NCBI RefSeq assembly: GCF_964204645.1
Contig: NC_134027.1
Coordinates: 22,964,560 to 23,028,559 of the forward strand
DNA length: 64,000 nucleotides
DNA from: Tubulanus polymorphus
Lineage: Eukaryota > Animalia > Nemertea
Direction of reading: 5' to 3'
Position numbers and translations under genes: made by a program. Under the pieces are notes generated by a model. The model made no database searches and had not been told where the DNA came from. It was given only the letters and a program-made list of their open reading frames with translations. Position 1 is the stretch's first letter. Every line of letters starts with the position of its first letter. Of the stretch, positions 3,801-60,916 are shown one piece after another.

Positions 3801-6800
3801 CGACAACATGGATAAATATTTCACCCAACCCAGCAGTAAATCATAAACCCGGATCTCACAGTGGACAGATATCTACTAGTAGTCTAGTAGTATCAACTGA
3901 TAAGGATAAGAATGGAAGACAATACAGATGTACAGCTAATCAGAACAGTCATCCCGTTAATGGTCTCAACCAAACCACAACATTGTCTATATTGTGTAAG
4001 TGTGGTATAGCACGTGTAATGTGTTTAACGGTTACATATTATTTCATTCATCGATTTGAATCGGAATACCAATCATTATCTGCATCTTCATGGTTCATTA
4101 AGATTAAATCAACCAAATGCGCTTTACTTATTTACAATTCGCATGATTTCAGTTCAACATCCGTAGATTGAGAGAATATTGAAAACAAATTATAATATGC
4201 TTAATGGTGAAAAACGGGCAGATTATGTGTTAGTAAACAATAGTCAGATCGAATGTAAAACTGAATCAGTCTTCGATCGATTTTCTTTACTTTGATAAGA
4301 TATGATAGTCTACCGTCAGATTATCTCAATGTAACGTCAAATTGTTTAATATCGGCTTTCTGACACGAGGGGGCGATAGTGTGCGTATGATACGTTTGCC
4401 ATATTTTTCATGTTTTGTAATATTATCAAAGTCGTTACGTAGAATCTTTGCAACTATTCCTTAATTTTCTTGCAAACTTCATGTTCTTCTCTCGGGGCTT
4501 TTGAATGTACAATTTTTGAAGTTTTAGAAACACTAGTTTTCCGGCCATTCTCCTTACGTCTGCTGTTACATAAAAATCTAACAGAGAATCACTTCGAGTT
4601 ACATCGTGTTCATTTATTGGTCCTCGCAATGACCAATTAGAAAAATACCCTGCAAAGAGGTATGAATCGCTAGATGTCGTACAAAAACAGGGTTTGGACT
4701 GTATTCCCGTTTTGCATATTTCGGTAGAAGAGCTGACATGCGCAGTAAGAATCAATTCTGTACTCAGTAAGAACCTTCACGCTCTGGACGAGTTCTCCAT
4801 AGTTCATGCAAGAAATTATTGGCGTAATCGAGTCTATGAGAATAAATCAATTCTGACTTGAAACGGTACCAACAAGCGGACCCCTGCAGGTGTTTGTCTT
4901 ATTTGGGTGTTTTTCTTTATCAGCAGTGCTTACTTCCTACTGAAGTGGCGCATGCCTGATGCGGTACATCGGTATCAGGGACATAGACTGGTTGCCTTGT
5001 CTTTTCGAACTTACTGCGAATGCAGTGGCCCTGAATTCGACAGGCAACCATTCTATCAGGGACAACGATTACAACGATTACCGTTCACTGTAAGAGAAAA
5101 TCACATGTTCGCATCTTTCAATGACCGTCTAATAAAGTATCAATCATGACTTTCAATGTTATATCTTCAGTTCCACCCGAGTCAATTACACTGACTGAAA
5201 TTCCAAACGGTCCAGTTGTTCACGGTACATCAAAAACTCTGACATGTACAACTGAATCCAGTAACCCGGTGTCTACAATTGTCTGGGCGTACAGCTCTTG
5301 GACGACAACGTGGACAAATATTTCACCCAACCAAGCAGTAAATCATAAACCCGGATCTCACAGTGCACGGGCATCTACTAGTAGTCTAGTAGTACCAACT
5401 GATAAGGATAAAAATGGAAAACAATATAGATGTACAGCTTATCAGAACAGTCAAACTGTCAATGGTGTCAACACATCCATGACGTTGTCTATATTGTGTA
5501 AGTGTTCAATAGGCGATTTATCTTCTTGATAAATGAAAATGCACAATAATCAGATGTATTCGTAGCCGTTTCGGTAGAGGTCTTGGATTACTGTAGCAAT
5601 GAAATGAAAAATTATCTTTTAATTTTGTAAAACATAGTAGTTAGTGTTTATCAGATGACTGGATATCAATCAAATCCACGAATGATTAATTCGTCACAAA
5701 AAACTTATAAAAACTGATTGCAGTAAAAACTGATATGATTTCATACGAGGGAATTTTACTCCATTTATCGGTAACTTTTTATTGCCGATGTCCGCTGTGA
5801 ACAACCAGTATGACTATAGTGAACTGTTATTTATCTCATAAAAACCCTACGAAAACGTCGTTGTGTTCTTACAAATGAACTTTACTCTATCTATCAGTGA
5901 TATTTTATTACCGATGTCCAATCTAAACAACCAGTATATACACAGTACAACGACAGCGTCCGGGGGGACATAATTACTTTGCATCGAAGGAAAACATTCT
6001 CAACAATTCATCTATCTTTATTCTAAGTTCTATTCCGAATTTCATCCATATTTTGTTTCAATTCTACTCCGTTACGCAAGGGGATCAAATTCCTCTCATA
6101 GCATTAGCGCAACTGGTACATATCTTCATTTGAGACTACACTGTACATTCTTTCATATTTCAAGTGCTGAAAAAGTTACTCTTGTATTTTTTAGAAACTT
6201 TTTATTCTATATACACTAGACACAATATTACATATTTAGTTTAATTCTACAATAGATGCACCGCAGCTTTCTTCACAAGTTGAACCCGTTGCCGCAAATA
6301 TAGGAGAAAGTGTTAGATTTACGATAAACTACGATGCAAATCCGTTAGCGACAACTCTCAACTGTAGACACAATTCAACAAATGACCGACGGAAATTGAA
6401 AAAGACCAGTTTAACGCAGTGGAATGTCATCATACAATCAGTTCAGGCGTCTGATTTTGGATCTTATTCGTGTAGACTCAATAATTCAGTTGGTAGCATA
6501 GGTATAACACTGAAACTCACAGAAACTGGTAAGAATCATGTGCTATTTCGAATTATATGTTGTTTTCAGAAATTCGCAGTCATTTGCACTATAGCACTAT
6601 TTACCACTTATCAATTCTAATAAAACCTGCAAATATCGATTGCAGCCTGAAACCTATTTTCAATGATAACTCTTCTGTTAGTCGTTCATCAATTGATAAT
6701 ATTTGAGTAGTCGGATGTCTGGAGGGATGCTGGGCCCAGGGTTCAGATTAATACCGGAGTAACACTCTGAATAACACGAGACTGCATTTTGCTGAACTGG

Positions 6801-9800
6801 GATCCCAATAAATTAGTGCAGCGCGCGAACTATAAAACGAATTTCTTTTTTTTCTTATTGTTTTAGGACCTCCCCAAACACCGTCAAATCTGTCAGTTAT
6901 TGCAAAAACAGCCATTTCTGTGACATTGAGTTGGGTGTCTGAATTTGAGGGTGGTGCCAAACAAACGTTTGCTGTCAGTTACAGGGCTTGGAATTCCATA
7001 CAATTCGTGAATAAAGCTGAAATACCCGATCCCGGTTATAGAAAACTGGTGCAAACGAAAATAACCGGTTTAAAACCGGCAACTGATTACCAGTTCAAAG
7101 TGAAAAGTGTCAACTTAAATGTAGGTGATAATACAAGTCCATTTACTGATATAGTTACAACTAATACAAATGGTAAGATTGAAGGCTTGTTAGATATGTA
7201 AGTTTTATAAGATATAAATACAGGCCTATTTTTAAGCCCGTTGGAATAATTAAACGTAAATTCCTCAATTCGTTAAGTTTTTGATTAGGATAATTTTGTT
7301 TGAGTTGAATTCCTCATTCTCGGAAAATCCTCATTGCGTGTCATCGAAGAAATTCAAACAAAAAGTTCCTTCGGATTATTTTACCAGTAAACTTTGCCGA
7401 TGTCATTCACATTCGATGTCGCATCATTTTCGGTCAAATTCAGAATCAAGGAGCTTCCCGTTGATACGAATATAGGAATCGGAATACGTAGCGACATACG
7501 TGCCTCCTCGATCCCCGATCTTGAGAATTCTATCTCGGCTGTTAGTTCCAGCTAGTGGGATTGGCTGCACCCACTCCTTTCTAGATGATTGTGTTGATGA
7601 TGTATCAATTGTTTTCAGGATGATATTGATATCGGATTTGTTTTTCTCATTTTTCAGCTATTCCAATCGCTTTAATCACCGCAATGAAGCAAGCGACAGT
7701 AACACAGAAAGGAAATAGTGTCCTGATAAAATTGTCGTCGTTTCCGTCGTGTCTACGCGGAATACTGTTTCAAAAATACGAACGAATGTTTTAATTCTAC
7801 GAAACTAGAAAGTACTGGCGGTTCGATTAGTATTGAGATTAAAATCGATCCCGATCAAGCATACAGTTACCAACTGATTGTAACTGAGAGAGGTGACGTG
7901 ATTCTGAGCCATCAGGTTGAAATTCCAGGTAAATATTTGCTGGTTAGTGTCGGTAAACCAAGATCCAAACGTTGAAAAGAGAAAGATAAACAAACGAATA
8001 AATGCATAGATATCCCAACCACGCCTATAGTCATTTTGCTAGTTCGCTTTTAATGAAAAATATCTCTGGTGAAATCCAGGCCCATCGATACTTCCTTGTC
8101 ATAATTTGCACATTTTATTTTCCCATTTTTCGATCCTCTCAGTTACTACCAATGTTGCGTTGATCGGAGGTGTTGTTGCTGGTGTATTGTTGGTCGCCAT
8201 CATCGTTATTGTGTTCGTGTTTCTATTCTTGAAAGGTCGTCGAGACGGTCAATGGATCTGGACAAAATACTGCACGAAAAGGTTTATGTTTCTTTTTGTT
8301 TATACGTTACTAGAAGTTTCCTCTTCTATTCGCTAAGCTTAATCTAATGTCAATAGATTCATTTCCATGCTGAGCAATAGACTCGTATTTTGTCTTTAAG
8401 GTATGTCCTACCCGTTTGTGTCCTATTCCCTTTTTAGATGGGCCAAAGAAAATAGCAATGCCGTCCTTTGATTTGTACGAGCCATAAAAAACGATGCAGT
8501 CCTTTTTTCAACAATAAGTGTCATTAATTCCACCAATGACTTCATTAATTTTGACGATAAGGACATATTTCTTGATGTAAAAGTGGGCAATTTTCGGTGA
8601 TATATTTCAAAAATCAGAATATTATAAATGGTCTCGAAACTGGTTGTACACGTTAGTTACACCACGAGAAGATTCGAATCCCAATATTCCATTTAACCGA
8701 TCCCTTTCACTAGCGACAATTATATTTTCGAAATATGTAATCGACGTGTAAATAATGCAGCGAAATCATTCTTTCATTTCAGAAAAACTGGAGAATCACA
8801 AGTTGGTAAATGAAGTAGAAATAGATTTGTTATTCGATGGGAAATATAATATAATGATAATATTATCAGTAATTTCATCATTATTTGAATTACAGGCCTT
8901 CTAGGGTTTCATCGGTTTTCCATACACTGAATATTTTTAAAACGAATACGTAACATCAATTCTATGATATTTTTGATAATAGCGTCATTCTTGAACAGAA
9001 TTGTTCTTATAATTTCAGTTTATTCAAACACGAAGGAATCCCCGTGTATGTATATTCGATGCATTTTCTGCCTTCGTGTCTCACTGTGAATTGAGTTTAC
9101 TATCGAAAAATATGATATTTCAGACTCTTACGCCACGGTAACACCGAACGTAAATGCGGCTTTTGAAGGTGGTAAGTCAATTATCATTAAATCACTTTTT
9201 CAATTTAACTTATTATACGTACATTTCTATGAAAACATCTATGAGAAAGTTTACAAAATTTTAGTCTCACCAGTGGCAAGATGTCGTCGACATCTGTACC
9301 AACTATTTTTGTTCCAAATCCTCACAGCCGCTATTCCAAAGTGCCACCTTATCATTTTAGGGATACGAATCATTTTTCTTATCTCATAGAATTTCAGGGC
9401 TTTTAAAGATTTTATCAGTTTTTACGAAACCCCACAAGGTGAAAACTCATTTTTCCGCGGCCACTGAGTAGAGACAATAGCTTGATGTAAGTGCTTAATG
9501 ACCTCACCATCTTCTAACCAGTCTCACTGCTTCTATTCTACCCCCTCCTGAACGGCGCTAGCTATCCTTTACATGTCCCTATATTCTATTATAGCAACTA
9601 AATGCTCTTCTATCTTTCCAACAAACTCCCACCTTGTAATCTGAGCCATTTGCCATCAGTGTGCACACTGCACACTCTACTCATATATACATTTAACTAT
9701 TGAATCTACACCAAAAAATAATCTTCCGTTCGAACGGAAAGGTTTGTGGCCTCGAAAAAAATATGTATTTCTCAGCATGTTACCATAGGTTTTCTATTTA

Positions 9801-10823
9801 CTTACACTGAATATTATATTTTTTCAATCTTGGAATAATTTTCATCATTTCAGTCTATTCAACCAGTAGTCAAGCCCATGGCACAGATCTGTGTATGTTT
9901 ATTCGATGCATTTGATACTTTCTCATTTCACTGCGAATTTAGTTTACAATTTATGGAATATGACATTTCAGACTCTTACGCCGCGGCCACAAGGAGCGTA
10001 AACAAGGCTTTTAACGGTAGGTCAATTATCATTGAATTAAGTCACACATTTCTATGAGAAAATCTAGAAAATCTAGGAGACAATATAGAAAAATTCTAAC
10101 GAAGGGCTAGCTATCGTAGACATTTTGTTTCAATCATCCTTGACCTAGCCTCCGCGCCTGCCTTGTCATTTTCGGGAAAGTGAGCATTTCATTAATCCGC
10201 TTGCATTCTTAGTTTTCCTTCGTTAAAATCTGGCTTCTGAAGATATTTTACTGTTTTCTAAAAACACTGAATATGTGATATTAGGAAATTCATACATATC
10301 ATCTATGTTTTTCTGGATATAATTGATTTTATATTTATTCCTTGAACCGAATTTCCACCATTGCAGTTTAATCAAACAGTAATGAAGCATATGACAAAGA
10401 CTCGCGTATGGATTATATTCGTTTCATCTGAAACCGTCTTATCTCCCTGTGAAATGCGTTTACTATTGATAAAATCATATTTCAGACTCTTACGCTGAGG
10501 AAACACTGTATGTAAATGTAGCTTTTGGCGGTAAGCAAGTCATCATTAAATCACTTCATCGATTATCATTAACCCATACCATAAAATTCATCGATAGACA
10601 TCATTCTAAGCAAACAATTTAGAATCTTCACAAAAGACTTAGATATCGTCGGGTTTTTCAACTACTCGTCACCTAAGCTCCGCGGCCGCTTTATCATTTT
10701 TTTTGGGATAGTGATAACTATGTGTTTTGTTTGTTTCCTTCATTAGAAGCAGACTCTGTAACTGGTGACCAGAACCATTATGAAGAAGTTATTATGGAAC
10801 TTTTTACTGACTCGAAAAACTAG
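821..10823 (+). CDS. IgSF receptor copy A (5' end outside window): 8 Ig + FN3 + spacer + TM + Tyr-motif tail; carries a frameshift and a premature stop
   Basis: GT-AG exons: Ig 821-1096, 1911-2186, 2315-2617, 2848-3123, 3250-3552, 3669-3995, 5171-5497, 6256-6528; FN3 6867-7172; spacer 7658-7928 (271 nt, 8-nt deletion versus the 279-nt paralog exon, stop at 7792-7794); TM 8143-8281 (VALIGGVVAGVLLVAIIVIVFVFLFL); tail 8783-8805, 9019-9045, 9124-9171, 9854-9892, 9972-10016, 10367-10405 (TAT>TAA), 10486-10530, 10753-10823. Ig motifs such as LTITC..YKW..DSDVYTC. Confidence 0.85.
4150..5095 (+). pseudogene. Dead 303-nt-type Ig exon split by an insertion (5' part also at about 28690-28850 minus and 44535-44660 plus)
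   Basis: atggtgaaaaacgggcagattatgtgttagtaaacaatagtcagatcgaatgtaaaactga (exon 5' part) breaks at about 4265; the exon 3' end acaacgattaccgttcact|gtaag resumes at about 5071. Confidence 0.7.
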
Positions 10824-11179
10824 CACGATGTGCTTGTAACATCGAAAATAAATTATACGACCCTTCTACTCCGTGGATGGATTCAAAGTTATTTGCAGCG
10901 TCATATGTACTTTGAAATGATTCCTGAAGAAACAATGTTACGATTTCGTTTTGTTTTCGCTTTCTCGTCGAACAAACACAAAATATACGTAAATTGATAA
11001 ACAAGTTGAACGGGTGCAATTAGAAATAGGTCTAGTTGTTGATGCCGTTAGACTATGCAACAAGTTAGAATTCCTACGAGTGACGGTCTATTCTGAAAAA
11101 TCTGTCGAAAGTAACTGTAATTTCTGCTTGTTTCCTCATTCACACTTATTCATTACCTACGTAAATTACCATTTCATTG

Positions 11180-11600
11180 TAACGGAATATAATGAATTAT
11201 TTGATAAATGTGAATGTATTGTTAGAATAAGAAATAAAAACAGATCTTGCTGTGAGTGGTATATTTCCCCAGACCTTTCGAAAGCGTTCGACATTCCAAA
11301 TCATGACATTATATGTCATGATTTGGAATATCATTATATGAAGGTTTCCTAGGGATAGTAAACGATTGGTATTCTTCTCATCTTCCCAATCAACAACAAA
11401 ATACGTCTCACACAAATGCTCCATTTCTTCCACACTATCCGCTAAGATCTGAGTATGCCGTGGTTTCTATCCTAGGTCCACTTCTTTTTCTTATTCACAT
11501 GCATTATATTTATTCTTCTACGGAAAAGCTTAAGTACATACTATTCGCTGTTGATACGCCACTGCATTAGTTCACATATACATCTCTGTACAAACATACA
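11180..11600 (+). mobile_element. Degenerate LINE (CR1/L2-type) reverse transcriptase fragment
   Basis: Ordered motifs DLSKAFDIPNHDII, WYSSHLPNQQQ, SILGPLLFLIH and ILFAVDT match the LINE RT consensus DLSKAFDxVxH / WxxSYLxxRxQ / SILGPLLFxIY / LFADD, with frameshifts. Confidence 0.75.
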
Positions 11601-12394
11601 TACATAATGATTTAGATTTGACGATGATGACTGCAGTCTCTAAAATAAAAAAAAAGCGCCTACAAATATCTTATCGTGCACGAAGTCATAGTGAAATATT
11701 TTTGAAACCCGATTTCAGCCATCCATCATACTTTATACTTTTTGTTATCATTGGATCATTTATGTTAATCATATGATCATTTATGTTTACATTGGGCTTC
11801 ACCTTACTTGATCTAATGCCGATCAGTTTCTGTATGAGATTTTTTAACAAAATATAATAAGAATTTATTCAAACTACAACGTAAGTCTCATTTTATGCAA
11901 TTTCTGAAGAATCTCTATCTCGAGTCATTTGTGGGTTCATTGACAATTCACAATGGCTTAGGTTATCTCAGGTGGTACAACACCGTGTGAAGTACGAAAG
12001 GCAGATTTCCAGGGCAAACTTCGGCTTTCGTAGCTAGTGGTTGGAAGAAATAACCGAACGCACTATGTTTGGTCGTAAGGCATTTCGCTGCGTCGTCCAT
12101 CTTGGAAATAGACACGAACTACAGCGACCGTGCCCAATCTCGTGGTCGACCGTTTTCGGTTCATAGTTCGGACAAACTGACATTCGGTTTCACTTAGTTC
12201 GACTATAGTCAAATAACTCCCATTACGAAGTTCGCCCAGTGTGCTGATAAAAATATCTAATGCCTTGCATCATTCACAACCAATGATGTCTTGGGTGTCG
12301 AAGTTCTGATTACAACGAAAAATGGCGATTAAGTGTCGAATGATGGTTCGATTAAAGATATTTTAGGTCAAGTTCCGCAGTTCACGAAATGGCC

Positions 12395-15300
12395 GAATGG
12401 TGGCAGCAGATGTAGAAATGAATACATGTCGTTCAAACATTAATTTTTGAATGTCTCAGGTATGAATTGAAACTCGCTCTGTCTATAGCTGTAAAAACCG
12501 AGCACCTCAGTTTCATATTCTACTTCCTGGTTGGAATTTCTACGAACACATATTGAGATATTCACGCAAAAAAGTGTGAAAACAGTGTTATAAGTAGTTT
12601 CTTGTAAGCGATCTCTTTTCTTCTAGAAAGTAAATTCGGCCACTGTATTTATTCTCGCCTCTGCGTCCTATCTGTTGAAAGGCCTTTTAAGTCTTAGGGA
12701 TGCTTATCGAACATGTAATTCGTTATAATTTTGAGTACTAAGTACAGAAGAAACAGTCATTTCCTACTTATACGACGAGCGTTGAGCCGCCTAAACAGAA
12801 CGAAATATAAGCCGCGGACTCAGGTTTACACGTATACGCTCAACCTTCTTCAATGTCATGCGACTATTCCCCCTCTTGTTTGCTATGATCATGTTCATAT
12901 TCTTGTTAAATAGGAGCAATACTTCCTCGTCTCTATTGCGTCGCATATTACTGGAGATCGGGATTTGGCAGTAGCAACGAAAGAAGAAAACATTCCACTC
13001 GCTCATCTAACTCGTGACTGGAAAAACGTTGATGAATGATTCCAAGGTTTTTGTTTGGAAATTAATCCGATTTTTGAACACATTTTTATCGAATTTGGGG
13101 AATTCTTTAGTTTTCTTCATTTAAGATCTACCAATCAATGTAACATTACAAAGACCGACGTCACCCGTACAGGAATCCACATCTTTTGACTTAACGTGTA
13201 CAGCTACAGGGGGCAACCCGGTACCGAACCTCGCCATAACTAGAATACCAGGGGGCAGCACTGTGAAACAGGGAGTTAGTCCTCTAACATATTCAACATC
13301 CGTCACTAAAACAGATAACCATGCAGAATATCAATGTACAGCTACTGGGGCTGGTATACCAACACCAATGATTTCTAATCAAGTTAAATTATTTGTTTAC
13401 TGTAAGTACTACACATATTTCTCAATCTACTCCATTTCTAAGTGAATGTTGCACAATAAAGAATATCAGGGTTGATAAAGATGCCGTACATGCAATGTTC
13501 CCAATCATTTTTTCCATTTTCCACAGATGCACCAAAGCTCTCGGAAAAACTCAAACCCGTCGTAGATTTACGATAAACTACGACGCGAATCCGCGAGCAA
13601 CAACTTTGAATTGCAGCCACACGTTTGAATACAGGGCTACTCCGGCAACCATGTTCTGGATCGTAACTGTAAAATCAGTTCAGGCGTCTGATTACGGATC
13701 TCATTTGTGTCAACTGAAGCGTAGAAATTACATTGAATATCCTAGAAATTGGTAAGTGCTGCATCGTGCGGAACTTTATTCCAGAAACGAAGCTTCATTA
13801 CGGTTGCTGCAGTCCACATGTGGAAAAATCCCTAGAAATTCTAATGAAAACTGCTTTAGATTCTATAGTCTCATTATTGTTCATTTGTCATCAATTGCAA
13901 AATACAACTTGTGCAACCTTCATCTTGGTCATTTTGTTCATTGTAGGGCTTCGAAATCTGACAATCGTCGCAAAAACGGCCGTATCTGTGACTCTGAGTT
14001 GGATATCGGAATTTGCGGGTGGCTCCATAAAAACATTCACAGTCACTCACAAGGCATTGGAATCTACAAAGTCCGCGGATAAAACTGGAATACCCGATCC
14101 TGGTTATGGGAAAATGGTGCAAACGAATTAATAACCGGATTGAAACCAGCAACTGCTTATCAGTTCAAAGTGATAAGTGTCAACTTAAATCCTGGTGATA
14201 AAACGAGGCCATTTACTGATATAGTTACAACTCGAACAAATGGTAAGTGTGAATCATGTAGAGATTTCGAATAGAACCATACAGGTCTCTTCCCCTATAT
14301 TCACTGCGCATTGATTCATGGTCCATTCCTCCTTTCGGTGTAATGAACTAAATACCGGTTTCTTGAATACTGTTGCGTATATTTCTCATCACTAAACTTC
14401 GAGAATGTTTCATACGTTTCTACTATCGGTTCTTGTTTTATAAGTTTTCCCGACAGGCGTCACCTCTACGCATGCGTATAACCCAACGGTCAACTTAGCC
14501 AAATTCATCGGCTTAGATGTATATAGATCCCTCCAATAGTATATATATAGTATTGTAAATAGTTGATGTATATATATATTTTGTTACGTTTTCATTCTCT
14601 AAATTTTAATCACTTCAGTGTTGTTTTGTAAATATTTGTATATAAATGTGTAATAGTTTTCCTCCATATACCATGGAAATGGTTGGAGTGTAAATAAATC
14701 GTAATCGTGATATTGTATCGTGTATGAGTTACACGTTCCGTTCAGCCTTTCAAAGTCTGAATCGACAGAACTTTAGGGTAGATATCAGATCCTAAAACCG
14801 ACTTGTTGCGCGTGCGCAGTGACTGGCATTGACTTCGAAAACTTGTAAAATAGAAGTTCGTGACCACGGTATATTCGTGACCACGGGACTTCTGATAACA
14901 GCACTACTGGTTGAATTATCATACTGCACTAAAGCATGTCCTGTATTATTTTCAGCTATTCCCAGCGCTATGGACACCGTATTGGATCAGGCCACGATAA
15001 CGCAGGAAAGAGATTTCGCCCTGGTGAAGATGTCATCGTTTCCGTCGAAGTACAGCGTCTACGTGGAATACTGTACGAAATATACGAACCAGTGTAAATC
15101 TACCAAACCGATAGAAACCACCGACGGTTCGATAAAAATTGAGATTAAAATCAATCCAGATCAACCATACACTTACAAACTGATCGTATCTGAAAGTAGT
15201 GACGTCATCGCCAGCAGACCGCTTGAAGTGAAAAAAGGTAAAGCTATGGCTGGAGGTTTTTGATCCAAAATATTTTGATGAGATGGAACACAACCATGGG

Positions 15301-16797
15301 AAAATAGATTCGAAGTCGCCTTCTTTTGAAAATTTGCAAAAAGGTGGCTGATTCTAGCCGAGTAAAAAAAAGATCTTTCCAATACGCCTAGCAAATATTA
15401 CATCATTTCGTTTTTGCATCCGTTTTTGTGTGGCCAAAAACAAGCGCAGAAAAGAAGATCCCGTTTTGTGTGGCGACGAAACAGGAATTAAATTTGGACT
15501 CAAATCGCTTGAAAAAAGATAATTTTTACGATAGATTTCTTATGCCGCAGATATTCTGTTGATGGTTATGTTTCTGCAAACCCAAGTAACCATAATCTAT
15601 ACAGATGCGAATATTGAAATCATCAATTTCAAACGTCATTTCTTTATTCAGTTGATGATAAGAGGACCGTAACGTCTCCAGATCCGCTGACGATTGTTGG
15701 TTTTGTTCTTAGTATCATCGCGTTTGTTCTGAACGTGATATTATTGGTATTACTTTTAATGAAACGATTAAGAAACAGAACAAGTGGAATGTAAGTGTTC
15801 ATTAATTAAATCATTTGCTGTCCATTTGTTTTGCATCAATTGCCCCCTTCTTTATGAACGATGCTGTTGTAAAACCATCAAGAAATGGCTGAGAAGTAGT
15901 CAATTGGGTTAATTTCAAAACAAGTAGGAAGATCAATTATTGTCTTCAAGCCATTAAATGGTAAATTCTTTAAAAAAACAGAAATACCTGAACACGGGCT
16001 CTGAAAATGCTCGTTCCTAGTGACTCATCTGAATCGGTTCGAATCCCATTATTACGCCGTTCTTTGAATTTGTGAAACATTTTTTTTCATTTCAGGAAAA
16101 ATGAAACTAATGATTCAACAACAGGTAAATTTGTTAAAAAATACTAGAAATATGAATTGTTTTCCCTGCTTCTAAATACTGAATATTTTTTGATAATACT
16201 ATACTACAATTGAATATTATTGATAATTACATCATATCCGAACGTATTTATAACATTTCAGTTTATTCTAACAGTAATGAACTCAAGGACACCGATTCAC
16301 GTATGTATATCTAGTGCATTTTAAACTATCCCGTCTAATTGAGCAAAACCACAATATCAATGAAAACTAATAGCTATTGTTTCATTCTAAAGGGTGGATT
16401 GCTGCCCGAAACGTTAGAAAAACACAATAGCTGTGTTTGATTGATCTCGTGGGTTTTGCTCAATTAAACTGAAGACTGGAAATAGTCTCGACTATTTATA
16501 ACTATCCCGTCTTTCTGTCAATAATTTCTATTGTATATTTTAAAAAATATTATAATTTTTCAGGTGTTTACGCCGCGGTGACGCCGTATGTAAATGTGGC
16601 TTTTTGTGGTAAGTATTTTCTCGAACATTCTTGCGAACACAGTATAGAAACATGAAGATATGATCGTTCCGCGTCCTTTTCGGGACAGTAACATAATTGT
16701 ATATATACATCCACTTCGTAAAACTTTACCGTCTTTTCCTTCATTTAAAGCAGAGCTCGAGCCCGATCAGAACAATTATGAAGAAGTCAGGAATTAA
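12395..16797 (+). pseudogene. IgSF receptor copy B, decayed pseudogene
   Basis: Promoter/exon-1 block 12395-12670 aligns to E 53010-53370 but the ATG and donor are lost. No signal or V exon found. Ig 13126-13401 open; Ig 13527-13751 deleted and frameshifted; FN3 13947-14242 frameshifted (..QTN*); spacer 14956-15237 open; TM 15652-15790; tail 16096-16124, 16262-16300, 16564-16608, 16754-16797 (VYSN.., VYAAVTPYVNV, NNYEEVRN*). Confidence 0.8.
16337..16499. mobile_element. Short Penelope-like terminal fragment with inverted arms and a 13-bp TSD
   Basis: TSD aactatcccgtct at 16324-16336 and 16500-16512; imperfect IR aattgagcaaaacc../..ggttttgctcaatt; core gggtggattgctgcccgaaacgtt. Confidence 0.6.
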
Positions 16798-19700
16798 CAG
16801 ATACTAATAACCAGCTTCGACCTCTTATCGACTGAAAGTTGTGTAATATAGAGTATGTAACAAAGATGTTGTGCCTGGGCCCATCGAATATTACACTATT
16901 ACACTCCGTGTTAAAAACTGTGGATTAGGGATACCGGTTCATTCGTGACGGTGTTACGGTCCTGTTTTGTCTGACGAATCGCAGGTAGTTTGTTTTCAAT
17001 GAATGAAATCGATCCTTTTCGGAAGAAATAACATAATTGATAAGAGTTCAAATGTCAAATTAATGCCTCGAGGAAAATAAGAATATTTTCAAATGCAGAT
17101 AAATCCTAAATACAGGGATAGTATTTGTACATGTATGTATATTTGTAACATAGATGCAGCTCCGATCTGTGATACGTGTCTCTCGAGAGTGATATTTTGT
17201 TCTCAATCGAAACATTTTCTTTTGTTATTACATTTTGTACGAATTACGTTGGATTATTTGTGGGTAAAATATCTGTATCTTATCATTATCGATATTAATC
17301 TATTTAATCGATTCGTTTATTCAATTTGTTTATCTAAATCATTTAATCAAGGCTACGCCGTACTTTGTAAAGTTAACCTGATGTTGAGTTGAAAATAATG
17401 AAATATTGCTGTTTTCCATAACGGAATGTATACAATAGATTCTCCTTCTCTCACTCAAGTTTACATCTACCCTTCAAACAACATCTACATTTTTCCTCTC
17501 TCAATAATTACACATGAAATAATCTTATAGGGTTTAAGAGCCTTGTTCTATCGTTTATATGTATTGGCTATTTTTATGTAAACTTCTTTCAAAATAAAGA
17601 ATATCTCACGCTCAATTTAGTTGAATTACAATTTTCTTTTGCGTTTCAAATTTCAGGCTTCATTTCGCAAAGATTTGTTGCTGTTTTCGCAATTTTTTAC
17701 GAAAATAGGTGACAATCGAAACTATTTCAATCAAACTCTCAGGAAGGGGAGAATTCGTGATTTTGTTTATGACATGTTGGAAGATGTCGGAGACATACAG
17801 TTGGAACCTCGTTGAAGAAAGCCACTAAATATTTGGATGGATATATGAAAGCTGTGGGTACTGGAGTGTGTAATGGGTAGTGTAGTGTGATCTGTGTGCA
17901 TTTGTGGCCAGCACACAGATCACATTGTTCAATGGGGTTTGGTCCAGGACTCGTGAGATTTTCTACAACACGGAAGTAACGTGTAATAAATGATGACTTG
18001 AATTGCATGACTGCCTACCACCCCTCATTATTGTTGGAAAAGTAAACGTTCCGCACTGACTAAAAATTAGTAATAATAATTAATAACATTTTTGAAATGA
18101 CCAGAATCTTAACTTAGGTTCTATCTCATTTTTATTTTACAATTGCGATTGGTATAATTTTTTTTAAACGGCCGTTAAGGCTTCATGTTTCGTCTGCAAT
18201 TCACTGCAAATAGTTACGCAACTACGCACATTTCAGTGTTTTGGCAGCTGTACACTCAATCGGCACCGTTCGTGACTAGCTTCACTGCGGAATTATCATT
18301 AATTTACATCGCCATATCACATCATCAACTTATATTGTGCCTTAAAACCCTAACAGCCGAAATAATTGAAATGCACACACGATTTCTATCATTGAAAATT
18401 GAGAGAGTGGCCGTGTTTGTGTTCTGCTGCTTCGCGTAAATCCCCATGGGGGCGCAACCGCGCGGAGTGGGGCCGATACGTCTAGCGGGTAGCGCCGATA
18501 TATCCGTGTTAAACGGGTTTCTTATTGAACCGAGTCATACTAATACTTAGAAGTCATTTCTTTTGGAACTGTGGAGCCTGATGTAGATTAGAATGAAATA
18601 ATGTCTCAATTCATATTTATGTTTATAGGGGAAAATAGAAAAAAACGCCCATATTCAATATAGAATATAAAATAATTCAAACACGTAGATTGCATATATA
18701 CGAAACTGAATATTTTTTTATTAAAAATTGAAAATTCTGCAAAAGCGTTTGCAATGGTGTATTAGATATATTATCATTCATTACATATACATGTATAACA
18801 AGCCAAACAAATCGTAATACGAACAATTGAGTATCAAAGCATCAATTTAAAAAGCCCTAGTGCAAAAAATATCTGCTTCTTAAATCCTAGTATAGCATGA
18901 AAAATGCCATTTTCAAAAATACTATGATATCGACATCTTTTTATTTCATTTAGAGATACGTGCATTGACATTCTCTTATCACAGACGCGCGTCAGAGAAA
19001 TCCACCACAGTGTCAATGGCTATAGACGTTGAGTAACGGAATAGTTCACATAAACATAGGTGAAAACTATCAGGTTTTGTGTAACAAGTAGTACTTAGAA
19101 ATGATTGAGGTTATTGTGACTGCAAAAAAGCATATAACTAGAGGGGCCAATGGACCAAGTAAGCATTCGAGATGAAATCATCTCTTGAGGGAAGAACTAT
19201 ATGAACAACTCAACACTATACAAATCTTAACCAGTTCACCAGATAATCTTTGCACCAGGAAGAATCATGGGTTTACGCTGGTATAAGGCTAAACAAAATT
19301 GATACCTTGTTTCTCATAATCGACCAGGTCAATTTTGTAAAATATCATGAAATTTGTAATCAGTTCATTTCTATAGCTGCCGGGTCTGCAATGGTAAAAT
19401 TAATCACGATTTTGAAAAAGTAATGTATAGGGAAGATAGGCCTATAGATAGATCCCGTTTAAGTTGCTCGAGTTTGAGTTAACTGGAGGACGGAATTGAA
19501 TGAAATGACTACACGAAGCTTCATGAAGACTGCCGTCTTTTCAAGGGAGGGTAAAAAATATCACACCAGTTATATCAATAAGATTTTATGAAAATATATG
19601 AGAGCAATATACACAGTAACTATTTGTAAAGAATATACGCATACATCATTGTTTAACATAGCTGCATAATTAATTGTTGAATTACAACGTTAGCCATCTA

Positions 19701-20578
19701 TAAAATGTCGAAACAACAAACGATGTTTGGATGGCTTTGCGATGTGGTTAGGTCTATTTCTCGCCTGTTGGCTGCCTAGAATGAATTGGCAACTTTGTGA
19801 TGAAGATGTCAAATGATGCCGAGGAACTTTTGAAATTAACATTGCTTGGACTCAAAATAAGCGTTGATAGGTATGAATTCAGAACGTCAAACCAACACGC
19901 AGGTCTTATAGAAAACTATCTACTCTTAATATTACAAATAATTGATAATAAATCAGTGAGCTCACAATATAGATATTAGGCATAAGCATTATTGATGATG
20001 ATATCTTGTAACTGTATTAGTCCTTTTATAGAGAAATATCTGATTGTGCTATGTTCTTATATAAACAGTTAATTAAGTCAAGTTAAGTTCTTGTATTTCT
20101 CTCTGACACCTGTTCCCAAACCCATCGTGGAGATTTTTGTTTTCTTCCAATTTTAACGTGGCAAATGAGTATTTTACACAGATATTATGCATGCAAATCG
20201 AAGGGCTAGATTTAAATCATATTTCAAAATCAACCCTACCACATTGAAAAAACTGTTAGAAACCAGCAGTGTTTTGTTAAAATACTACAAAATGGACGTC
20301 GGATCCAGTTTCACCATGATGTCCGTATGTAACTTTCAAACCTAATAGAGAACTGTAGAACTAGATCCAGAAATGGCTCTCCTAAATATTGCGATTGTTT
20401 CAGGGACGGATTTCGCAAGAGATCACGAAAACCTGTGAGAACGAAAGGATCTGACCGAGGTCCAGGAATGGCACCAGACGTATCCTCGACAGTCATTTGA
20501 TATCAGCGATAACATGCTACATACAATCCTTAGAACCTCGCTCGACTGAACACAGTGGATGAGACAATAATACAAAAA

Positions 20579-23500
20579 TCAACATTTCTTTTCCTGCTGC
20601 TCTTTTTCTTCACGTTGTCTGCGTCGTTCGGCCTCTTCTGCTTCCAAACGAGCGACGAGTTCAGCTTGAACTTGCGGCTCAACGACGCGACCGAGTTCTG
20701 AGTACGTCGAAAAATCATCGAAATCACCGATAAGCACACCAGGGGGCGCTTGAATTTTGACGTTGTTCACGACGTGTAAATAGATCGGTTCTTTTCTCAG
20801 TTCTTCTACATCGTCTGCATTGAATGCAGGGTTGTCGACACCACAGTTAACGTACTTCACGATATCCCCATCGTCATTGTTGTAAACGTCTTGATAAGGA
20901 TTCTCTTTGTCGCCAATTGTTTGATAGGGATTTTCTGAAATCATACGCGTAACAACATTTAGTGAATTCAACAAACAATCCGTCAAACGATTCAGTTGGC
21001 CAGTCTACATCTGGGAATTGAAGGTTACAATAAATCTATCAAACCCTCCCGCATAAAAGTGGCTGCTTTCTAAAATGCCCATGACATCGTCAAGTCTGCC
21101 CACTAGTGATTGGATATTTACTTCACGCCCTATTTTCCACAATAAACTCTGCCTTACTTGGACTTCTTTTCTTTTCCCTTTTAGAAACGGTATTTTAGAG
21201 TTAGCGTATCGGACATCGTACAGAATTCTGATTCTCTCGTAAGAATCGGTGTACACGTAGAACTCACCCATTTCGTAGTTTCCATTTCTCTCTGCTTTTT
21301 TCGCCTTCTTTCCTTTACGCGTTTTGTTTTTATCGACTTGCGAGTACAGTGGTTCTGCACTATCTAACGACCCTGAAGAGAAAACACGGGATGTGAATAT
21401 CTTAGAAACAAATTTCACGTCATACTTTTTCTCGAATATCTAATTTGGCATTTCATTTTGTGTAGCCAACACATTTCTTTTCTTCGAAAAAGTTTCTGAA
21501 TGTACTTTTGCTACAAATAAAATCCCTTTAGTATAGATTTCATTCTGTGCATTTCACCTTTAGTTTTCTTGTTCTTGCTTTTATCCACATTGGAGTAAAT
21601 TGGATCAGTACCGCTTGCACCATTTACGACTGAGAATAAGCCACAAGTTTGAAAAAATTGGCAAAAACAATTTCAAACAATTCTATTCGAGAAAATCATT
21701 GTCATTTCATGTGTTATTCGTGACAACATTCGCATTCTTTACAACAACAACGATTCAGTAGTAATACTAAACTGGGAGTCATGATTTCAATGATTGAGGA
21801 AAATCATGATTAGTTTCCTAACAAAACTTTTTCATCGAAAGTGACTTTATTGATTCTGTAAAAATTATCACGCGTTTCTACGGCAATTGACGGCACTCTT
21901 CGTGTTTTCAATGATTTCATCGCATCGGTAAAATCATGATAAGTTTCCAATGTAAGCCTCTAATGTAAGGTACACCGTAGTCTATGCACAAATGGTGGTA
22001 TGGAATTGTGCACGACCAATTTCATTAAATCTTTAGTCTAATACATCGTAAATAAAAATCGTAGCGGAAAAATGCTTTTTGATTTTTTTTCACTTTATCT
22101 AGTTGGTTTTCATAAAACGAAATTTGAAAGAGTAAGATTATTTCCATTTCCTCTATGTAACTATGTGTATCGGTAAGTTCTTTGTGAATATACGGCACAT
22201 GTAATCCTGCTATTCTAAGGGCATTTCACCAAATACGTTGATCGGTTCCTTGGTATCATTCTAGATTTGAAAAACACTTGCTTACCTTGATTCTGATTTC
22301 GTTTTTTATTTTTGTCGACCTGTGCGTAAATCGGTTCCCCTGAAAATAATAGAATTCAAAATCTATTCCGATCGCCTCTACCATTCTTCTGGTCAATGAC
22401 CGAGCAAATGATAGGTTTTTATAGATTGAGCCATCAATATTGCATCATTTGGCAATTCCCGAATATAACTAATCACTGTACACTACAGGACATTACCGGA
22501 CATAACCGATCACTTCGATCATTACGTCCAAAAATACGAACCTGAATTCGCTACACTTTAAATCAAGCTTTACCTTATCGTGAGATTAATATGCATGGCA
22601 ATCTTTGGACTTAGATATTGAGATAATGAATATGTTAATTGATTCGCGGCTCGGAAATACTCGGTGGTTTTACGGAGATATCCGGCAATATCGATCGGTC
22701 CAAAAAATCGATTAATTAAGATAGGGCCTCGTAACATAAAGATAAAACTCTTACCAGTTTTCTTGACTCCATCTTCCGAAACTGCGAATATAGAAATGGA
22801 TCTATTTAAGTACTTATAATGTATTAGTTCTAATTCAGTTATGACAATATATGTGATACAGTAATAATACGTTAAATCCTACAATTGTAAATAGGCTAAA
22901 AAGTTTATTCTAAAATTACTTGTGATAATTCGGGGTATAACTGCAACCCTCCTACGATCAGTCTTAAAGGGGGAAGGATGAAGGAGACTTCTAAGATTGA
23001 AGCAATTTTTTCGTTGATTCTTTTAACAAACCTTCTACTCAATTCAGTAGATCAGAAAATATCTTTATTTCAATAATGACGAAGTTTCAATGAAATGAGG
23101 AAATGAACCGATTGCTTACCAAGATCGTTAATGCTCGAATACGGATCTGAAAATATGAAACAAGTTTAAGCATCTCATAGACGGTATTGTGATTGAAGAA
23201 TATTTTATAAAAGTCCGATCTTTAACTTAAAAACTCTGCGCTGAAGATAGAAAATATTTTTTTTCTTTTTCTTTTGCCCATTCGGGATCTAAAAGGACAA
23301 AGACAAACGAGAATTTCAATAGTGTTTTTCTCTGAAGAAATAGAAAACCCTAATAATTTGTGCCAATTTTATTACTAACAAAGAAATTCTCGCAACATTT
23401 AGGGATACGATATAACTGAAAATATTGTGGGGATTTCATTGTCCATAATGCAATATAAAAACCGACTGACAGAGATTTTCAACAATAACGTTGTGATATG

Positions 23501-23794
23501 AAAACTGTTGCAATAATCTGTTTGCGTAAATTTTCGGCGTGTTAGAAAGTTGTAAAATTGTGACATTACCGAAGTCATCGGTAGTGACGTGATTATCTTT
23601 GGTCGGTGGACTTTTAGGTTTTTTGTTGACTCGCGCGTACACGTCACCTAACAAGGAAAAGAAAACAAATATTTGAAAAAATATATGTTTATTGTTTAGA
23701 TGAGATGAAAGGTTTGAAGTGGCAAATTTTACCTCTAGGTCCGGCTACATGTCCATCGATATCGTTATAGTTCGGAGGAGGAACTGAAGCCGGA
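20579..23794 (-). CDS. Cytoplasmic tail exons of copy C (13 Tyr; PPPNY, VYARV, EPIYAQV, DPIYSNV, EPLYSQV, YQTI-x6-YQDV, EPIYLHV, STYSEL; C-terminal charged helix)
   Basis: Eight in-phase exons translated by hand; they overlap ORFs 23436-23654, 21005-21418 and 20579-20986. Confidence 0.85.
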
Positions 23795-26700
23795 CTGAAA
23801 AAAGGGAAACACACCATTTTGTGGTGATCGCCTGGGCTGGAAAGGGAATCTCTGACATGGAATTAAGTTAAACAAATAGGAATTGAAATCTCTAGTTTCT
23901 ACCTTCTCGAGCTATTTTTTGTCCAGATCCATTGACCTTCTCGACGCCTTTTCACGAATAGCAACACGAACACAATGACGATGAGGGCGAGCAACAATAC
24001 ACCCACAACAACACCTCCGATCAGTGCAACATTGGTAGTAACTAAGAGGATAAAAAATAAAATGTGCAAACTATGACAAGAAAGTATCGATGTGCCTGAA
24101 TTTCACCAGAGATATTTTTCATTAAGAGTGAACTAGCAAAATGACTATAGGTATGGGATATCTATGCATTTATTTGTTTTTTTATCTTTCTTTTCAACGT
24201 TTGGATCTTGGTTTACCGACACTAACCCGCAAATATTTACCTGGAATTTCTACCCGATGGCTCAGAATTACGTCACTACTCTCAATTACAATCAGTTTGT
24301 AACTGTATGCTTTATCGGGATCGATTTTAATCTCAATACTAATCGGCCCACCAGTACTTTCTTGTTTCGTAGAATTAAAACATTCGTTTGTATGTTTGAT
24401 ACAGTATTTCACGTAGACGCTGTACTTCGACGGAAACGACGACATTTTTATCAGGACACTATTTCCGTACTGTGTTACTGTCGCTTGCTTCAATACGGTG
24501 TTTATAGCGCTTGGAATAGCTAGAAAATTAGAAACCATGAATTCGATTTCAAAAAAGACCGGAAAAAATTATATCATCAACACAATCATCTAGACTGGAG
24601 TACGTGCAGCCAATCCCACTAGCTGGAAATAACAGCCGAGTTAGAATTCTCAAGATCGGGGATCAAGGAGGCACGTATGTCGCTACGTATTTGCATTCCG
24701 ATATTCGTATCAGTAGGAAGCTCCTGGACTCTGTTTTTGGGCTTAAAATGATGCAACATCGAATGTGAATGATATCGGAAAAGTTAACTGGTAAAATAAT
24801 CCGAAACAGCTTTTCGTTCGATTGTCGTCGTTGACGGTAACAATCACGAAATGAGGAATTTCCGAAAATGAGGAATTTAACTCAGCGAAATTAACTTTAT
24901 TAATTTCACATAAAGAAATGTGCGTTAAAGTAATCGAACGAGCTTAAGGATAGGCCTGTATTTATATCTTACTAAACTTACATATCTTACAAGTCTCCAA
25001 TCTTACCATTTGTTCTAGTTGTAACTATATCAGTAAATGGACTCGTATTATCACCGGGATTTAAGTTGACACTTTTCACTTTGAACTGATAATCAGTTGA
25101 TGGTTTTAATCCGGTTATTTTCGTTTGCACCAGTTTTCTATAACCGGGATCGGGTATTTCAGCTTTATTCACGAATTGTGTAGCATCCGATACCCTGTAA
25201 CTGACGGCGAACGTTTGTTTGGCACCACCCTCAAATTCAGAAACCCAACTCAGCGTCACAGAAACAGCTGTTTTTGCAATAACTGACAGATTTGACGGTG
25301 TTTGGGGAGGTCCTGAAACCACAAGAAAAAAAGAAATTCGTTTTATAGTTCGCACGCTGCACTAATTTATTGGGATCCCAGTTCAGCAAAATGCAGTCTC
25401 GTGTTATTCAGAGTGTTACTCCGGTATTAATCTGAAGCCTGGGCCCAGCATCCCTCCAGACATCCGACTACTCAAATATTATCAATTGATGAACGACTAA
25501 CAGAAGAGTTATCATTGAAAATAGGTTTCAGGCTGCAATCGATATTTGCAGGTTTTATTAGAATTGATAAGTGGTAAATAGTGCTATAGTGCAAATGACT
25601 GCGAATTTCTGAAAACAACATATCTTTCGAAATAGCACATGATTCTTACCAGTTTCTGTGAGTTTCAGTGTTATATCTATGCTACCAACTGAATTATTGA
25701 GTCTACACGAATAGGATCCATAATCAGATGCCTGAACTGATTGTATGTTGACATCCCACTGCGTTAAACTGGTATTTTTCATTACATGGCGGCCCTTTGT
25801 TGAATTGTGTCTACAGTTGAGAGTTGTCGCTAGCGGATTTGCATCGAAGTTTATCGTAAATCTACCACTTTCTCCTATATTTGCGGCAACGGGTTCAACT
25901 TGTGAAGAAAGCTGCGGTGCATCTATTGTAGAATTAAACTAAATATGTAATATTGTATCTAGTGTATATAGAATAAAAAGTTTCTAAAAAATACAAGAGT
26001 AATTTTTTCAGCACTTGAAATATGAAAGAATGTACAGTGTAGTCTCAAATGAAGATATGTACCAGTTGCACTAATGCTATGAGGAATTTGATCCCCTTGA
26101 GTAACGGAGTAGAATTAAAACAAAATACGGATGAAATTTGGAATAGAACTTAGAATAAAGATAGATGAATTGCTGAGAATGTTTTCCTTCGATGCGAAGT
26201 AATTATGTCCCCCGGACGCTGTCGTTGTACTGTGTAACTGGTTGTTTACATTGGACATCGGTAATAAAATATCACTAATATATGGAGTAAAGATCACTTG
26301 TGAGAATACAACGACGCTTTCGTAGGGCTTTTATTTGTTAACTCTAAGATGAGATAAATATCAGTTCACTATAGTCATACTGGTTTTTTTACAGCGGACA
26401 TCGACGATAAAAAGTAACTGATAAATGGAGTAAAATTCCCTCGTATGAAATCATATCAGTTTTTTACAAGTTTTCTGTGACGAATTCATCATTCGTGGAT
26501 TTGATTGATATACGGTCATCTGATATACACTAACTACTATGTTTTACAAAATTAAAAGATAATTTTTCATTTTATTGCCTCAGTAATCCAAGACCTCTAC
26601 CGAAACGGCTACGAATACATCTGATTATTGTGCATCATCATTTATCAAGAAGATAAATCGCCTATTCAACACTTACACAATATAGACAACGTCATGGATG

Positions 26701-35700: not shown

Positions 35701-36411
35701 TTTCATTACAAGGACTAAGTAGAAATGTATGCCCCCCGCGTCACTTTGGAGAAGCCAGTGCACAATGAGAAACACGGTATGTATTTTGAATGGCGTTATG
35801 TGGTAGTATTTACCTGCTGTAGATCTCACGCAGAGAAGAACAATCACAAACACACACCAGACTACCGGTACATTCTGAATATATATTAGAACAATAAATT
35901 ACATGTGTTTGTCATAAATAAAGTTTTCATTTCTAAATCAATTTAATCGACGTCTTGTTCGTGGACTTAAAACGATTTAACTATTTATAACCATACGTAC
36001 ATATATTTGTAATCGCAAACAGCAATCTATGTAAGATCTATTGACGAATAAGCCACCATAATTGATTTACGTATCTAAACTCGAAATTTTTTGGATCATT
36101 TCATTAATGGCCTTTGCTTTGATGTTGGAGAGCCTAAACAATTCTAAAGCCGTGCTTAAATAAAGTCAAGTCGTGTAAAAATTAATTTGAGTAACTTATG
36201 AATCTGAATATGTAGGCCTATAACCTTTTTTTATTCAACAAATCCATGTACGCAACTAACATATTTTTGGAACTAACACAATTTTCTTGCAGTTGTGAAG
36301 TGACTGTGGTGGCTATAAGTAAGAAGCCAGTGGCCTATACGCGTGTTTTATCACGATTTTACTGCATTATATAGGCCTACATGTACTCACTTGGATGCGT
36401 TGAGTGTTCAT
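20579..36411 (-). CDS. IgSF receptor copy C, apparently intact: SP + V-Ig + 8 Ig + FN3 + spacer + TM + long multi-tyrosine tail
   Basis: Exons (minus strand): 36411-36391 MNTQRIQ; 35874-35814 signal NVPVVWCVFVIVLLCVRSTA; V 34740-34390; Ig 32221-31946, 31043-30768, 30639-30337, 30107-29832, 29706-29404, 29285-28959, 27003-26677, 25922-25650; FN3 25312-25007; spacer 24519-24241; TM 24041-23903; tail 23794-23733, 23647-23570, 23146-23120, 22781-22755, 22339-22286, 21629-21558, 21372-21268, 20934-20579. Splice phases are all compatible and I found no stop. Confidence 0.9.
27441..28125. mobile_element. MITE/non-autonomous DNA transposon with long TIRs
   Basis: TIR tacgacggcgtcctag.gacattaat..ttttcacttttccggccataattatctgcg at both ends; absent from the corresponding site in A (about 4860). 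Confidence 0.8.
32330..34150 (-). mobile_element. Same Penelope-like remnant in the V-Ig2 intron of C
   Basis: Reverse complement of about 39280-41060; hammerhead-like ctgaaga-agggtggcagcaaccaccc-gaaa at 34102-34131. Confidence 0.7.
34390..34740 (-). CDS. N-terminal V-type Ig exon of copy C
   Basis: 351-nt phase-1 exon, QQQNCIDAADTT..VQCQVSPP..YGLRITNVQMSDAGGWAC..VTVV, matching the V-set E-F strand pattern L-x-I-x-N-V-x-x-x-D-x-G-x-(W)-x-C. Confidence 0.85.

Positions 36412-53302: not shown

Positions 53303-60916
<7,614 letters not shown>

Follow-up and report, generated by a model that had tools for sequence, protein, structure and literature searches.

When a gene places the membrane-near ectodomain of one receptor class in front of the cytoplasmic tail of another, the question arises whether it is a genuine hybrid, how it was put together and whether the two kinds of tail convey opposite signals. 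It is raised here by a 64,000-nt stretch of the genome of the nemertean Tubulanus polymorphus (the window, to which all coordinates refer), which on self-comparison is a cluster of five related immunoglobulin (Ig)/FN3 receptor genes, A to E, whose exon models were built by coordinate. Further models of the same family reside on the 27.8-Mb contig that holds the window, and counting one model per apparent locus, with isoforms left out, yielded 16 models out of 33 proteins. These Ig/FN3 receptors form a family resting on two fixed gene frames, a long-tail class (six models) and a short-tail class (ten models). With somewhat better than even confidence we propose that the outer domains of this two-class family are likely converted between neighbouring genes while its tails are predicted to act in opposite ways on Src-family kinase signalling. 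That gene A is a real hybrid with a real breakpoint is a statement that we make with high confidence.

Structure and breakpoint of gene A

Within the window, gene A (821..10823, plus strand) comprises eight Ig exons, an FN3 exon, an FN3-like spacer exon, a transmembrane (TM) exon and tail exons that match those of P0010 (XP_074645302.1), an intact A-type model of 1141 residues with substitutions of its own; the 5' end of A, including the N-terminal V domain that likely binds the ligand, lies before base 1. The distal Ig exons (2315..3995, plus strand) are nearer to the short-class gene D than to the long-tail gene C, as judged from synonymous differences and from three-way sites that favour A-D: the three exons at 2315-3552 show no synonymous difference from D and three to four each from C. 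Starting at 5171 the resemblance of A to C is the greater one, and the sites that are informative on A, C and D form a patchy pattern over the first 4.4 kb (chi2 110, 0/2000 permutations). Alignments delimit a long-class, C-like tract at 5123..8367 (plus strand), consisting of the last two Ig exons, the FN3, spacer and TM exons and about 85 bases of the next intron; its left edge is blurred and falls at about 4000-5120.

Over this tract, 5123-8283 of A (plus strand) aligns with 27053-23901 of C (minus strand) at 89.9%. DNA identity amounts to 93% in the last Ig exon, 92% in FN3, 90% in the spacer and 88% in the TM exon (each 0/60 shuffles), with 86-91% protein identity in the last Ig and FN3 domains. 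The three introns between the last Ig and the TM exon are 84-98% identical (94%, with 0/60 shuffles, for the one between spacer and TM exon), so that introns are homogenised as much as exons. An earlier note on this DNA had described these exons as near-identical; the sharing of Ig, FN3, spacer and TM exons is borne out, but an identity of 88-93% is less than that wording implies. The TM exon of A (8143..8281, plus strand) is of the long-class type, ends in GQWIWTK and encodes an uncharged helix. Like the short-class TM exon it ends in phase 2, and the hybrid is therefore in frame.

The transition itself lies in the intron behind the TM exon. There, the stretch 8309-8367 scores 46 against the C intron (0/2000 shuffles) and is at chance level against D (894/2000), whereas the intron further downstream matches D (local score 263, z 50), as do the first three tail exons, which do not match C (z below 0). 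From 8375, A agrees with 50201-50246 of D at 34 of 46 ungapped positions, compared with 10-16 at eight other offsets. Since the matched D sequence starts ten bases inside the TM exon of D, the intron of A carries, at 8375..8386 (plus strand, ungapped matches to D), what is left of the 3' end and donor of a TM exon of the D type; this stretch was picked after inspection of the alignment, which renders its shuffle value (1/2000) optimistic. The breakpoint between long-class and short-class DNA falls in the interval 8368..8374 (plus strand), and the switch to a D-type intron and tail that the earlier note had put at about 8290-8400 can now be located between 8367 and 8375. The 14-mer at 8402, which the note had matched to 50243, is indeed identical there at 13 of 14 positions, but in register 8402 faces 50228 and 50243 is a local second copy.

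Only about 70% similarity to C remains in the first 85 intron bases behind the TM exon of A, and the junction is therefore older than the homogenisation upstream of it. The signal exon of P0010 is of the short class and 94% like that of D. Because of this signal exon, the distal Ig exons that are nearer to D and the short tail, the sequence of A is best read as that of a gene that would be short-class at both ends with a long-class tract in the middle. The earlier description of A as a C-type ectodomain on a D-type tail holds for the membrane-near part and the tail and does not extend to the distal Ig exons. Overwriting of the middle of A by gene conversion is likely, and the donor need not have been C, as the juxtamembrane sequence of A, KGRRDGQWIWTKY, is closer to that of another long-tail model, P0006.

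The junction in sequencing runs and its splicing

Four sequencing runs were aligned to 6800-11000, the bridging evidence consisting of assembled contigs, not long reads. One contig of run X1 spans 8149-9660 (11 other letters, two gap letters) and one of run X2 spans 8259-8727 (one other letter, two gap letters), such that two assembled DNA contigs bridge the junction, which the earlier note had placed in the interval 8281-8800. The transcript joining the A-type TM exon to short-tail exons, on which the same proposal depended, was recovered as one spliced contig from run X4 (depth 86.1), an unlabelled run that was taken as RNA from its GT..AG joints. It contains six such joints, from the TM exon to 8783 and then to 9019, 9124, 9854, 9972 and 10747, and these are read as one contig since the exon lengths sum to the 344 letters of one record. 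The five spliced short-tail exons (8783-8805, 9019-9045, 9124-9171, 9854-9892 and 9972-10016, plus strand) are followed by the last exon with NHYEEV (10747..10823, plus strand). A third tail repeat, made up of two exons (10367..10530, plus strand), the first of which (10367-10405) contains the stop codon TAA while the second keeps YVNV, is left out of both P0010 and the spliced contig. The spliced tail of A lacks both YVNV-type tyrosines, and P0010 likewise lacks them in both spliced repeats. Between the contig and the window there are differences at 8229, 9026 and 9869, of which two give P0010 residues; an A-type hybrid is spliced and its transcript is not letter-identical to the window copy of A. 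At the level of the whole sample, bulk run X4 holds this A-type contig as well as C-type exon-exon loose ends.

The window copy carries a defect in its spacer exon (7658..7928, plus strand; 271 bases, eight fewer than in C). Eight bases that are present in C, E and B are deleted after 7748, which shifts the frame and leads to a stop ahead of the TM helix, at model residue 934. None of 20 of the 26 records at 7680-7830 (four runs, two samples) bridged this deletion. Contigs in X1, X2 and X3 carry the eight bases and otherwise match the window exactly, and raw reads of run X5 (eight gapped and ten loose-ended at depth 19) carry the intact spacer form. As these contigs and reads show the intact form, and bearing in mind that assembled contigs drop minor variants, the deletion is either a null allele present in a minority or an error of the assembly. 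An FN3-to-TM joint skipping the frameshifted spacer exon, which would be in frame, is absent from the joints listed for 6800-11000.

Ectodomains group by locus, not by tail class

Class membership is visible at both ends of these genes. The GQWIWTK-type TM exon occurs in all six long-tail models and in one of the ten short-tail models, P0010, and the signal exon follows the tail class in 11/11 models that have a 5' end. The ectodomains in between behave differently. In approximately unbiased (AU) tests, grouping by tail class is rejected by the tree of last Ig, FN3 and spacer (11 rows, B, P0022 and P0007 being excluded for missing domains; p-AU 1.5e-91) and by that of the V domain (11 rows; p-AU 7.4e-08). 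Ectodomains group by locus, not by tail class. In the TM tree, where the two types separate at 100/100, A and P0010 side with the long class; pulling both out of that class is not rejected over 53 TM columns (p 0.19), and the TM tree alone therefore fails to place them within it.

The cleanest long/short pair is located on a different contig of 16.5 Mb, where the long-tail P0008 and the short-tail P0023 combine opposite TM and tail types with ectodomains that are 93% (V), 94% (first Ig), 97% (last Ig), 98% (FN3) and 95% (spacer) identical. The V domains of P0005, P0010 and D share 84-89%, those of C and D 66%. For the homogenised Ig exons the ratio of nonsynonymous to synonymous substitution (dN/dS) comes close to 1, and over the whole V domain there is no sign of positive selection (pairwise dN/dS 0.5-0.7, three pairs only). 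The pair on the 16.5-Mb contig as well as P0010, P0005, P0022 and P0026 are known as predicted protein models only, and the latter four may represent either a genuine second block or another haplotype that was retained.

Some further features of the ectodomains were noted. V-domain differences among 11 members cluster in one patch of about 14 residues behind a conserved CG/CD (residues ~44-57), as read off 34390-34740 (minus strand), 38671-39014 and 55116-55466, and this suggests a variable binding face. Over the stretch that starts with the eighth Ig and ends with the second tail exon, P0005 is identical to P0015, the model of gene C, but the two are only 70% alike in the V domain; P0005 is either a recent duplicate or an allele with a swapped N-terminus. 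The membrane-near domains vary as well, P0007 being devoid of the FN3 exon and P0027 and P0028 of the spacer exon.

Tail motifs and a working model for signalling

The long tail exons of C (20579..23794, minus strand) encode 276 residues that, as the earlier note had it, are wholly different from the tail of A. They carry VYARVNK, EPIYAQVDK, DPIYSNVDK and EPLYSQVDK, with STYSEL near the end, i.e. four Y[AS]xVxK motifs, a number reached in 0/10000 shuffles, and one exact EPIYA. In a scan of six long and eight short tails, two to five Y[AS]xVxK motifs were present in five of the six long tails and in none of the short ones, and one match to the consensus of the immunoreceptor tyrosine-based inhibition motif (ITIM), STY[ST]EL, was present in 6/6 long tails. 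Short tails have 60-102 residues; all eight scanned end in YEE[VI], and TPY[VM]NV occurs in eight of the ten short models.

YVNV is a predicted Grb2 site of the YxN type, a type represented among published Grb2 ligands. The YEEV end of the short tails resembles Nck/Src sites, YEE[VI] being close to pYEEI, which the accessible part of PMC2271153 gives as the Src/Lck consensus. Phosphorylated EPIYA and EPLYA bind the SH2 domain of Csk, and Csk recruited to the membrane inhibits Src kinases (PMC3593179, PMC3561454, both in extract). The Csk SH2 pattern applied in the tail scan was Y[TAS][KRQN][MIVR]; PMC9269885 gives no Csk SH2 consensus. Taken together, the long tail is predicted to dock Csk and the short tail to dock Grb2 and Src/Nck, and a Csk brake set against a Src/Nck/Grb2 go signal is the most economical working model that we infer from these motifs.

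According to this model, ectodomains would be copied between neighbouring genes by gene conversion, and in one instance a conversion tract, or a double crossover, from a long-class donor would have extended across the TM exon of a gene of the short class and given rise to A. Ligand binding would be followed by tyrosine phosphorylation of the tails. The Y[AS]xVxK repeats of the long tail would then bring Csk to the membrane and damp Src kinases, with STYSEL possibly recruiting an SHP phosphatase, while signalling or uptake would be promoted by the short tail, whose YVNV and YEE[VI] would engage Grb2 and Src/Nck. Because A keeps only YEEV, it might be a weakened activator or a decoy. That the ligand is a pathogen or a non-self molecule would be a guess drawn from analogy. 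The chances that long and short tails really signal in opposite directions appear about balanced, judging by their motifs. A more far-reaching version, in which an independent lophotrochozoan paired-receptor system does without ITAM (immunoreceptor tyrosine-based activation motif) or adaptor, sets its balance directly at Src-family kinases by opposing Csk-docking repeats to Src/Nck/Grb2 sites, keeps its ectodomains matched through repeated conversion on two chromosomes and uses hybrids as tuned-down decoys, is put forward tentatively and with less than even confidence.

Points against the model and alternative explanations

Several observations weigh against the proposed opposition of tails. 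The long tail of P0006 is devoid of Y[AS]xVxK. A single ITIM match arises in 27-38% of shuffles (3840/10000 for a tail such as that of C) and is at chance level, though it is conserved in 6/6 related tails. No ITAM of the form Yxx[LI]x6-12Yxx[LI] was found in any of the 14 tails, and none of 14 TM helices has a charged residue. TPYVNV also fits the pattern TxYxx[VI] of the immunoreceptor tyrosine-based switch motif (ITSM), which can be inhibitory according to PMC5112662; IYAQVQK is a solved SAP ligand; and Csk binding can raise Src activity by sequestration, as described for Pragmin. The motifs may hence also allow binding of SAP-type proteins or SHP2, or sequestration of Csk. The V domain of C is 63-70% identical to all others compared (E excluded), and C is therefore without a matched V partner among these; if the V domain of A resembles that of P0010, A and C would share only 67% in this domain. 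Finally, gene prediction is the source of the database proteins, some of which probably join neighbours wrongly, and four of the five window genes (A, B, D and E) are broken as assembled.

This last point, together with the loss of the YVNV tyrosines and of a whole tail repeat in A, a dN/dS near 1 in homogenised Ig exons and an A-C intron homogenised to 98%, just like exons, is what neutral turnover would predict, with conversion and unequal crossing-over acting on a tandem array, A decaying as a short-class gene with an accidentally acquired neighbour's TM exon and the tails doing unrelated jobs. We consider this possible but unlikely, as a second contig repeats the pairing of long and short tails with an ectodomain of its own, signal exon, TM and tail are linked by class in all models except P0010, tyrosine motifs are retained across diverged members and an A-type hybrid undergoes splicing and has other copies that are intact; Siglec-11/16, too, are reported to show relaxed constraint and many null alleles (PMC5701461, in part). 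The automatic database names, nephrin-like and syg-2-like, the layout of many Ig plus FN3 domains and the terminal YEEV with its likeness to Nck/Src sites would equally suit adhesion or junction proteins of the nephrin/SYG-2 type, whose ectodomains bind each other and whose tails link to different cytoskeletal adaptors free of antagonism. Such a role is improbable in our view. Three protein searches, word-seeded and weak for distant kin, returned matches solely from Tubulanus polymorphus (8/804, 13/47 and 15/4108 candidates), and at least 16 models with a variable V patch would suit a recognition family in rapid evolution better than a single conserved junction gene.

Two further explanations concern the origin of A itself. 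It could be an old short-class gene with its own TM exon, C having gained a new tail, and the intron remnant that is only about 70% like C, implying a junction older than the upstream homogenisation, would agree with this direction. The linkage of the GQWIWTK-type TM exon to long tails in six of six models on two contigs and the relic of a D-type TM exon end in the intron of A largely refute it, leaving it very improbable. A mis-join of near-identical neighbours during assembly is conceivable in a region as repetitive as this one, the more so as the window copy may hold errors, the 8-base deletion being missing from the contigs examined. Nevertheless, the junction is spanned by contigs from two samples and crossed by a spliced one, it is situated in diverged, not identical, sequence, and there is a second A-type model that carries substitutions of its own. 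Short of long reads, the bridging and spliced contigs refute an artefactual junction, to which we assign hardly any probability.

Comparison with known receptor systems

Paired receptors are defined by conserved extracellular regions, the ligand-binding domain among them, with different tails, by location in small clusters, by opposite signalling and overlapping expression and by an ITIM-bearing member next to a short-tail member with a charged (Arg/Lys) TM residue or an ITAM (PMC3533184, in the text available). In Tubulanus, ectodomains are conserved between classes (86-91% for A/C in the last Ig and FN3, 93-98% over five domains including V for P0008/P0023) and genes are clustered, with five of them in 64 kb and a head-to-head arrangement of C and D; the charged TM residue and the ITAM are lacking (0/14 TM helices, 0/14 tails), for which reason this is not a textbook paired receptor. 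The paired-receptor logic of the earlier note can be upheld at the family level, in that shared ectodomains come with two kinds of tail; A and C fit it less well than the family does, and the activating hallmarks are wanting. The grouping of ectodomains by locus in AU tests is as expected for pairs maintained by conversion.

Vertebrate pairs kept alike by gene conversion include Siglec-11/16, Siglec-5/14 and PILRa/b (PMC5701461, PMC13358205, as far as their accessible text goes). They share with Tubulanus clustered genes of the immunoglobulin superfamily (IgSF), homogenised ectodomains of long- and short-tail members and common broken copies. In contrast to them, the Tubulanus proteins have no charged TM residue for an adaptor of the DAP12/FcRg type, the short tail has tyrosine motifs of its own and there is no sequence relation. 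The CEACAM1/CEACAM3 and Xenopus ceacam pairs resemble the Tubulanus family in having tyrosine motifs in both members, conversion on the ligand side and repeated independent pairs (PMC5112662, in extract). They oppose ITIM/ITSM to ITAM-like motifs, whereas Tubulanus opposes Y[AS]xVxK repeats to YVNV/YEEV without any ITAM and has ectodomains of up to 11 Ig and two FN3-type domains. Though it resembles the Siglec-11/16 and CEACAM pairs, the family should not be filed as a member of either.

Among invertebrates, the Alr proteins of Hydractinia combine V-set/I-set Ig domains with a spacer of FN3-like type, each domain having its own exon; pseudogenes are numerous and the tails are more diverse than the ectodomains (10.1101/2022.03.04.482883, in part), all as in Tubulanus. 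Unlike the Tubulanus proteins, those of the Alr family have ITAMs or ITIMs in their tails and one to three Ig domains. An Atlas feature match to the Alr2 cluster scored 0.84, which is a lead only, and an FN3-like spacer is a common fold. The FcoR of Botryllus are likewise invertebrate IgSF proteins encoded on more than one chromosome, with several types of tyrosine motif that are read as activating or inhibitory (PMC12582321, partial text). In FcoR the motifs change with allele and splice form, and the partners are fester proteins; the Tubulanus classes are separate gene frames that trade ectodomains.

The repeated E/D-P-I/L-Y-A/S of the long tails, one of them an exact EPIYA in C, also occurs in Pragmin, p140Cap and the A/B segments of CagA (PMC3593179, PMC3561454, both in extract). 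In Tubulanus these repeats sit in the tail of a host transmembrane receptor and their binding of Csk is predicted. Nephrin and SYG-2 possess many Ig domains, FN3, one TM helix and tyrosine motifs in the tail; the Tubulanus proteins differ from them as a one-species expansion with variable Ig number, an extra FN3-like domain and two tail classes. No paper describing this family was found in a literature search limited to open access.

The other genes of the window

Gene C (20579..35874, minus strand) is an intact long-tail gene in one open frame, with a signal exon, nine Ig exons (the first V-set by Pfam), FN3, an FN3-like spacer, TM and tail, and its 21 exons are all identical to P0015 (XP_074646830.1). 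Its spacer and TM exons lie at 23903..24519 (minus strand). The spacer of 92 residues is predicted to form a seven-stranded sandwich (predicted local distance difference test score, pLDDT, 90.9) whose best structural matches are FN3 domains (Z 9.8, root-mean-square deviation 2.6, 89 aligned), although it yields no Pfam match and no Foldseek match at E <= 0.001. Four isoforms of the locus (P0014, P0017, P0018 and P0019) end in tail copies outside the window, and the annotation can therefore join neighbours; these tails reflect either an annotation mis-join or long-range splicing to the tail of a neighbour. A further isoform, P0016, ends in DPEWAKEKEKKYFLSSAQSF, with matching sequence in a tail intron of C (23302-23225, minus strand), and of the tyrosine motifs of the long tail this short alternative ending retains the first ones only.

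Gene D (37694..51301, plus strand) is a short-class gene arranged head to head with C; it has 11 Ig exons, its own TM type and a tail with YSN, TPYVNV and NPYEEV. Its V exon is frameshifted near 39005, and its seventh Ig exon (44093-44419) has a GC donor (44418-44421) where paralogues have GT. C and D share an inverted repeat of 5.6 kb at 92% identity (28596-34155 and 39273-44756), which includes intron DNA and ends before both V exons. An intronic stretch common to both (~33200-34050 and ~39400-40250) resembles, by eye, the decayed reading frame of a retroelement, and an inverted stretch with 72% similarity downstream of both genes (19286-19441 and 52042-52176) is perhaps a small repeat. Gene B (13126..16797, plus strand) is a truncated short-class gene matching P0012, with broken Ig and FN3 exons and open spacer, TM and tail exons. 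Gene E (54688..60917, plus strand) is a short-class gene with five Ig exons, one of which (57380-57654) is one base short; P0026 is an intact near-copy of its 3' part, with 92-100% identity over the last eight exons. A long (TA)n run is located upstream of E at 54325-54469.

Implications

Paired receptors kept alike by gene conversion are already known from vertebrates, and families with ITAMs and ITIMs from Hydractinia and Botryllus. If the two tails of the Tubulanus family oppose each other, they would represent a further independent origin of the paired design with different wiring, and the long-tail members would be host receptors with tandem EPIYA-like motifs of the kind that bacterial effectors are thought to mimic. 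As the tails are short peptides, this prediction is cheap to test. Even otherwise, gene A would still be a clean and mapped case of gene conversion moving a TM exon between gene classes.

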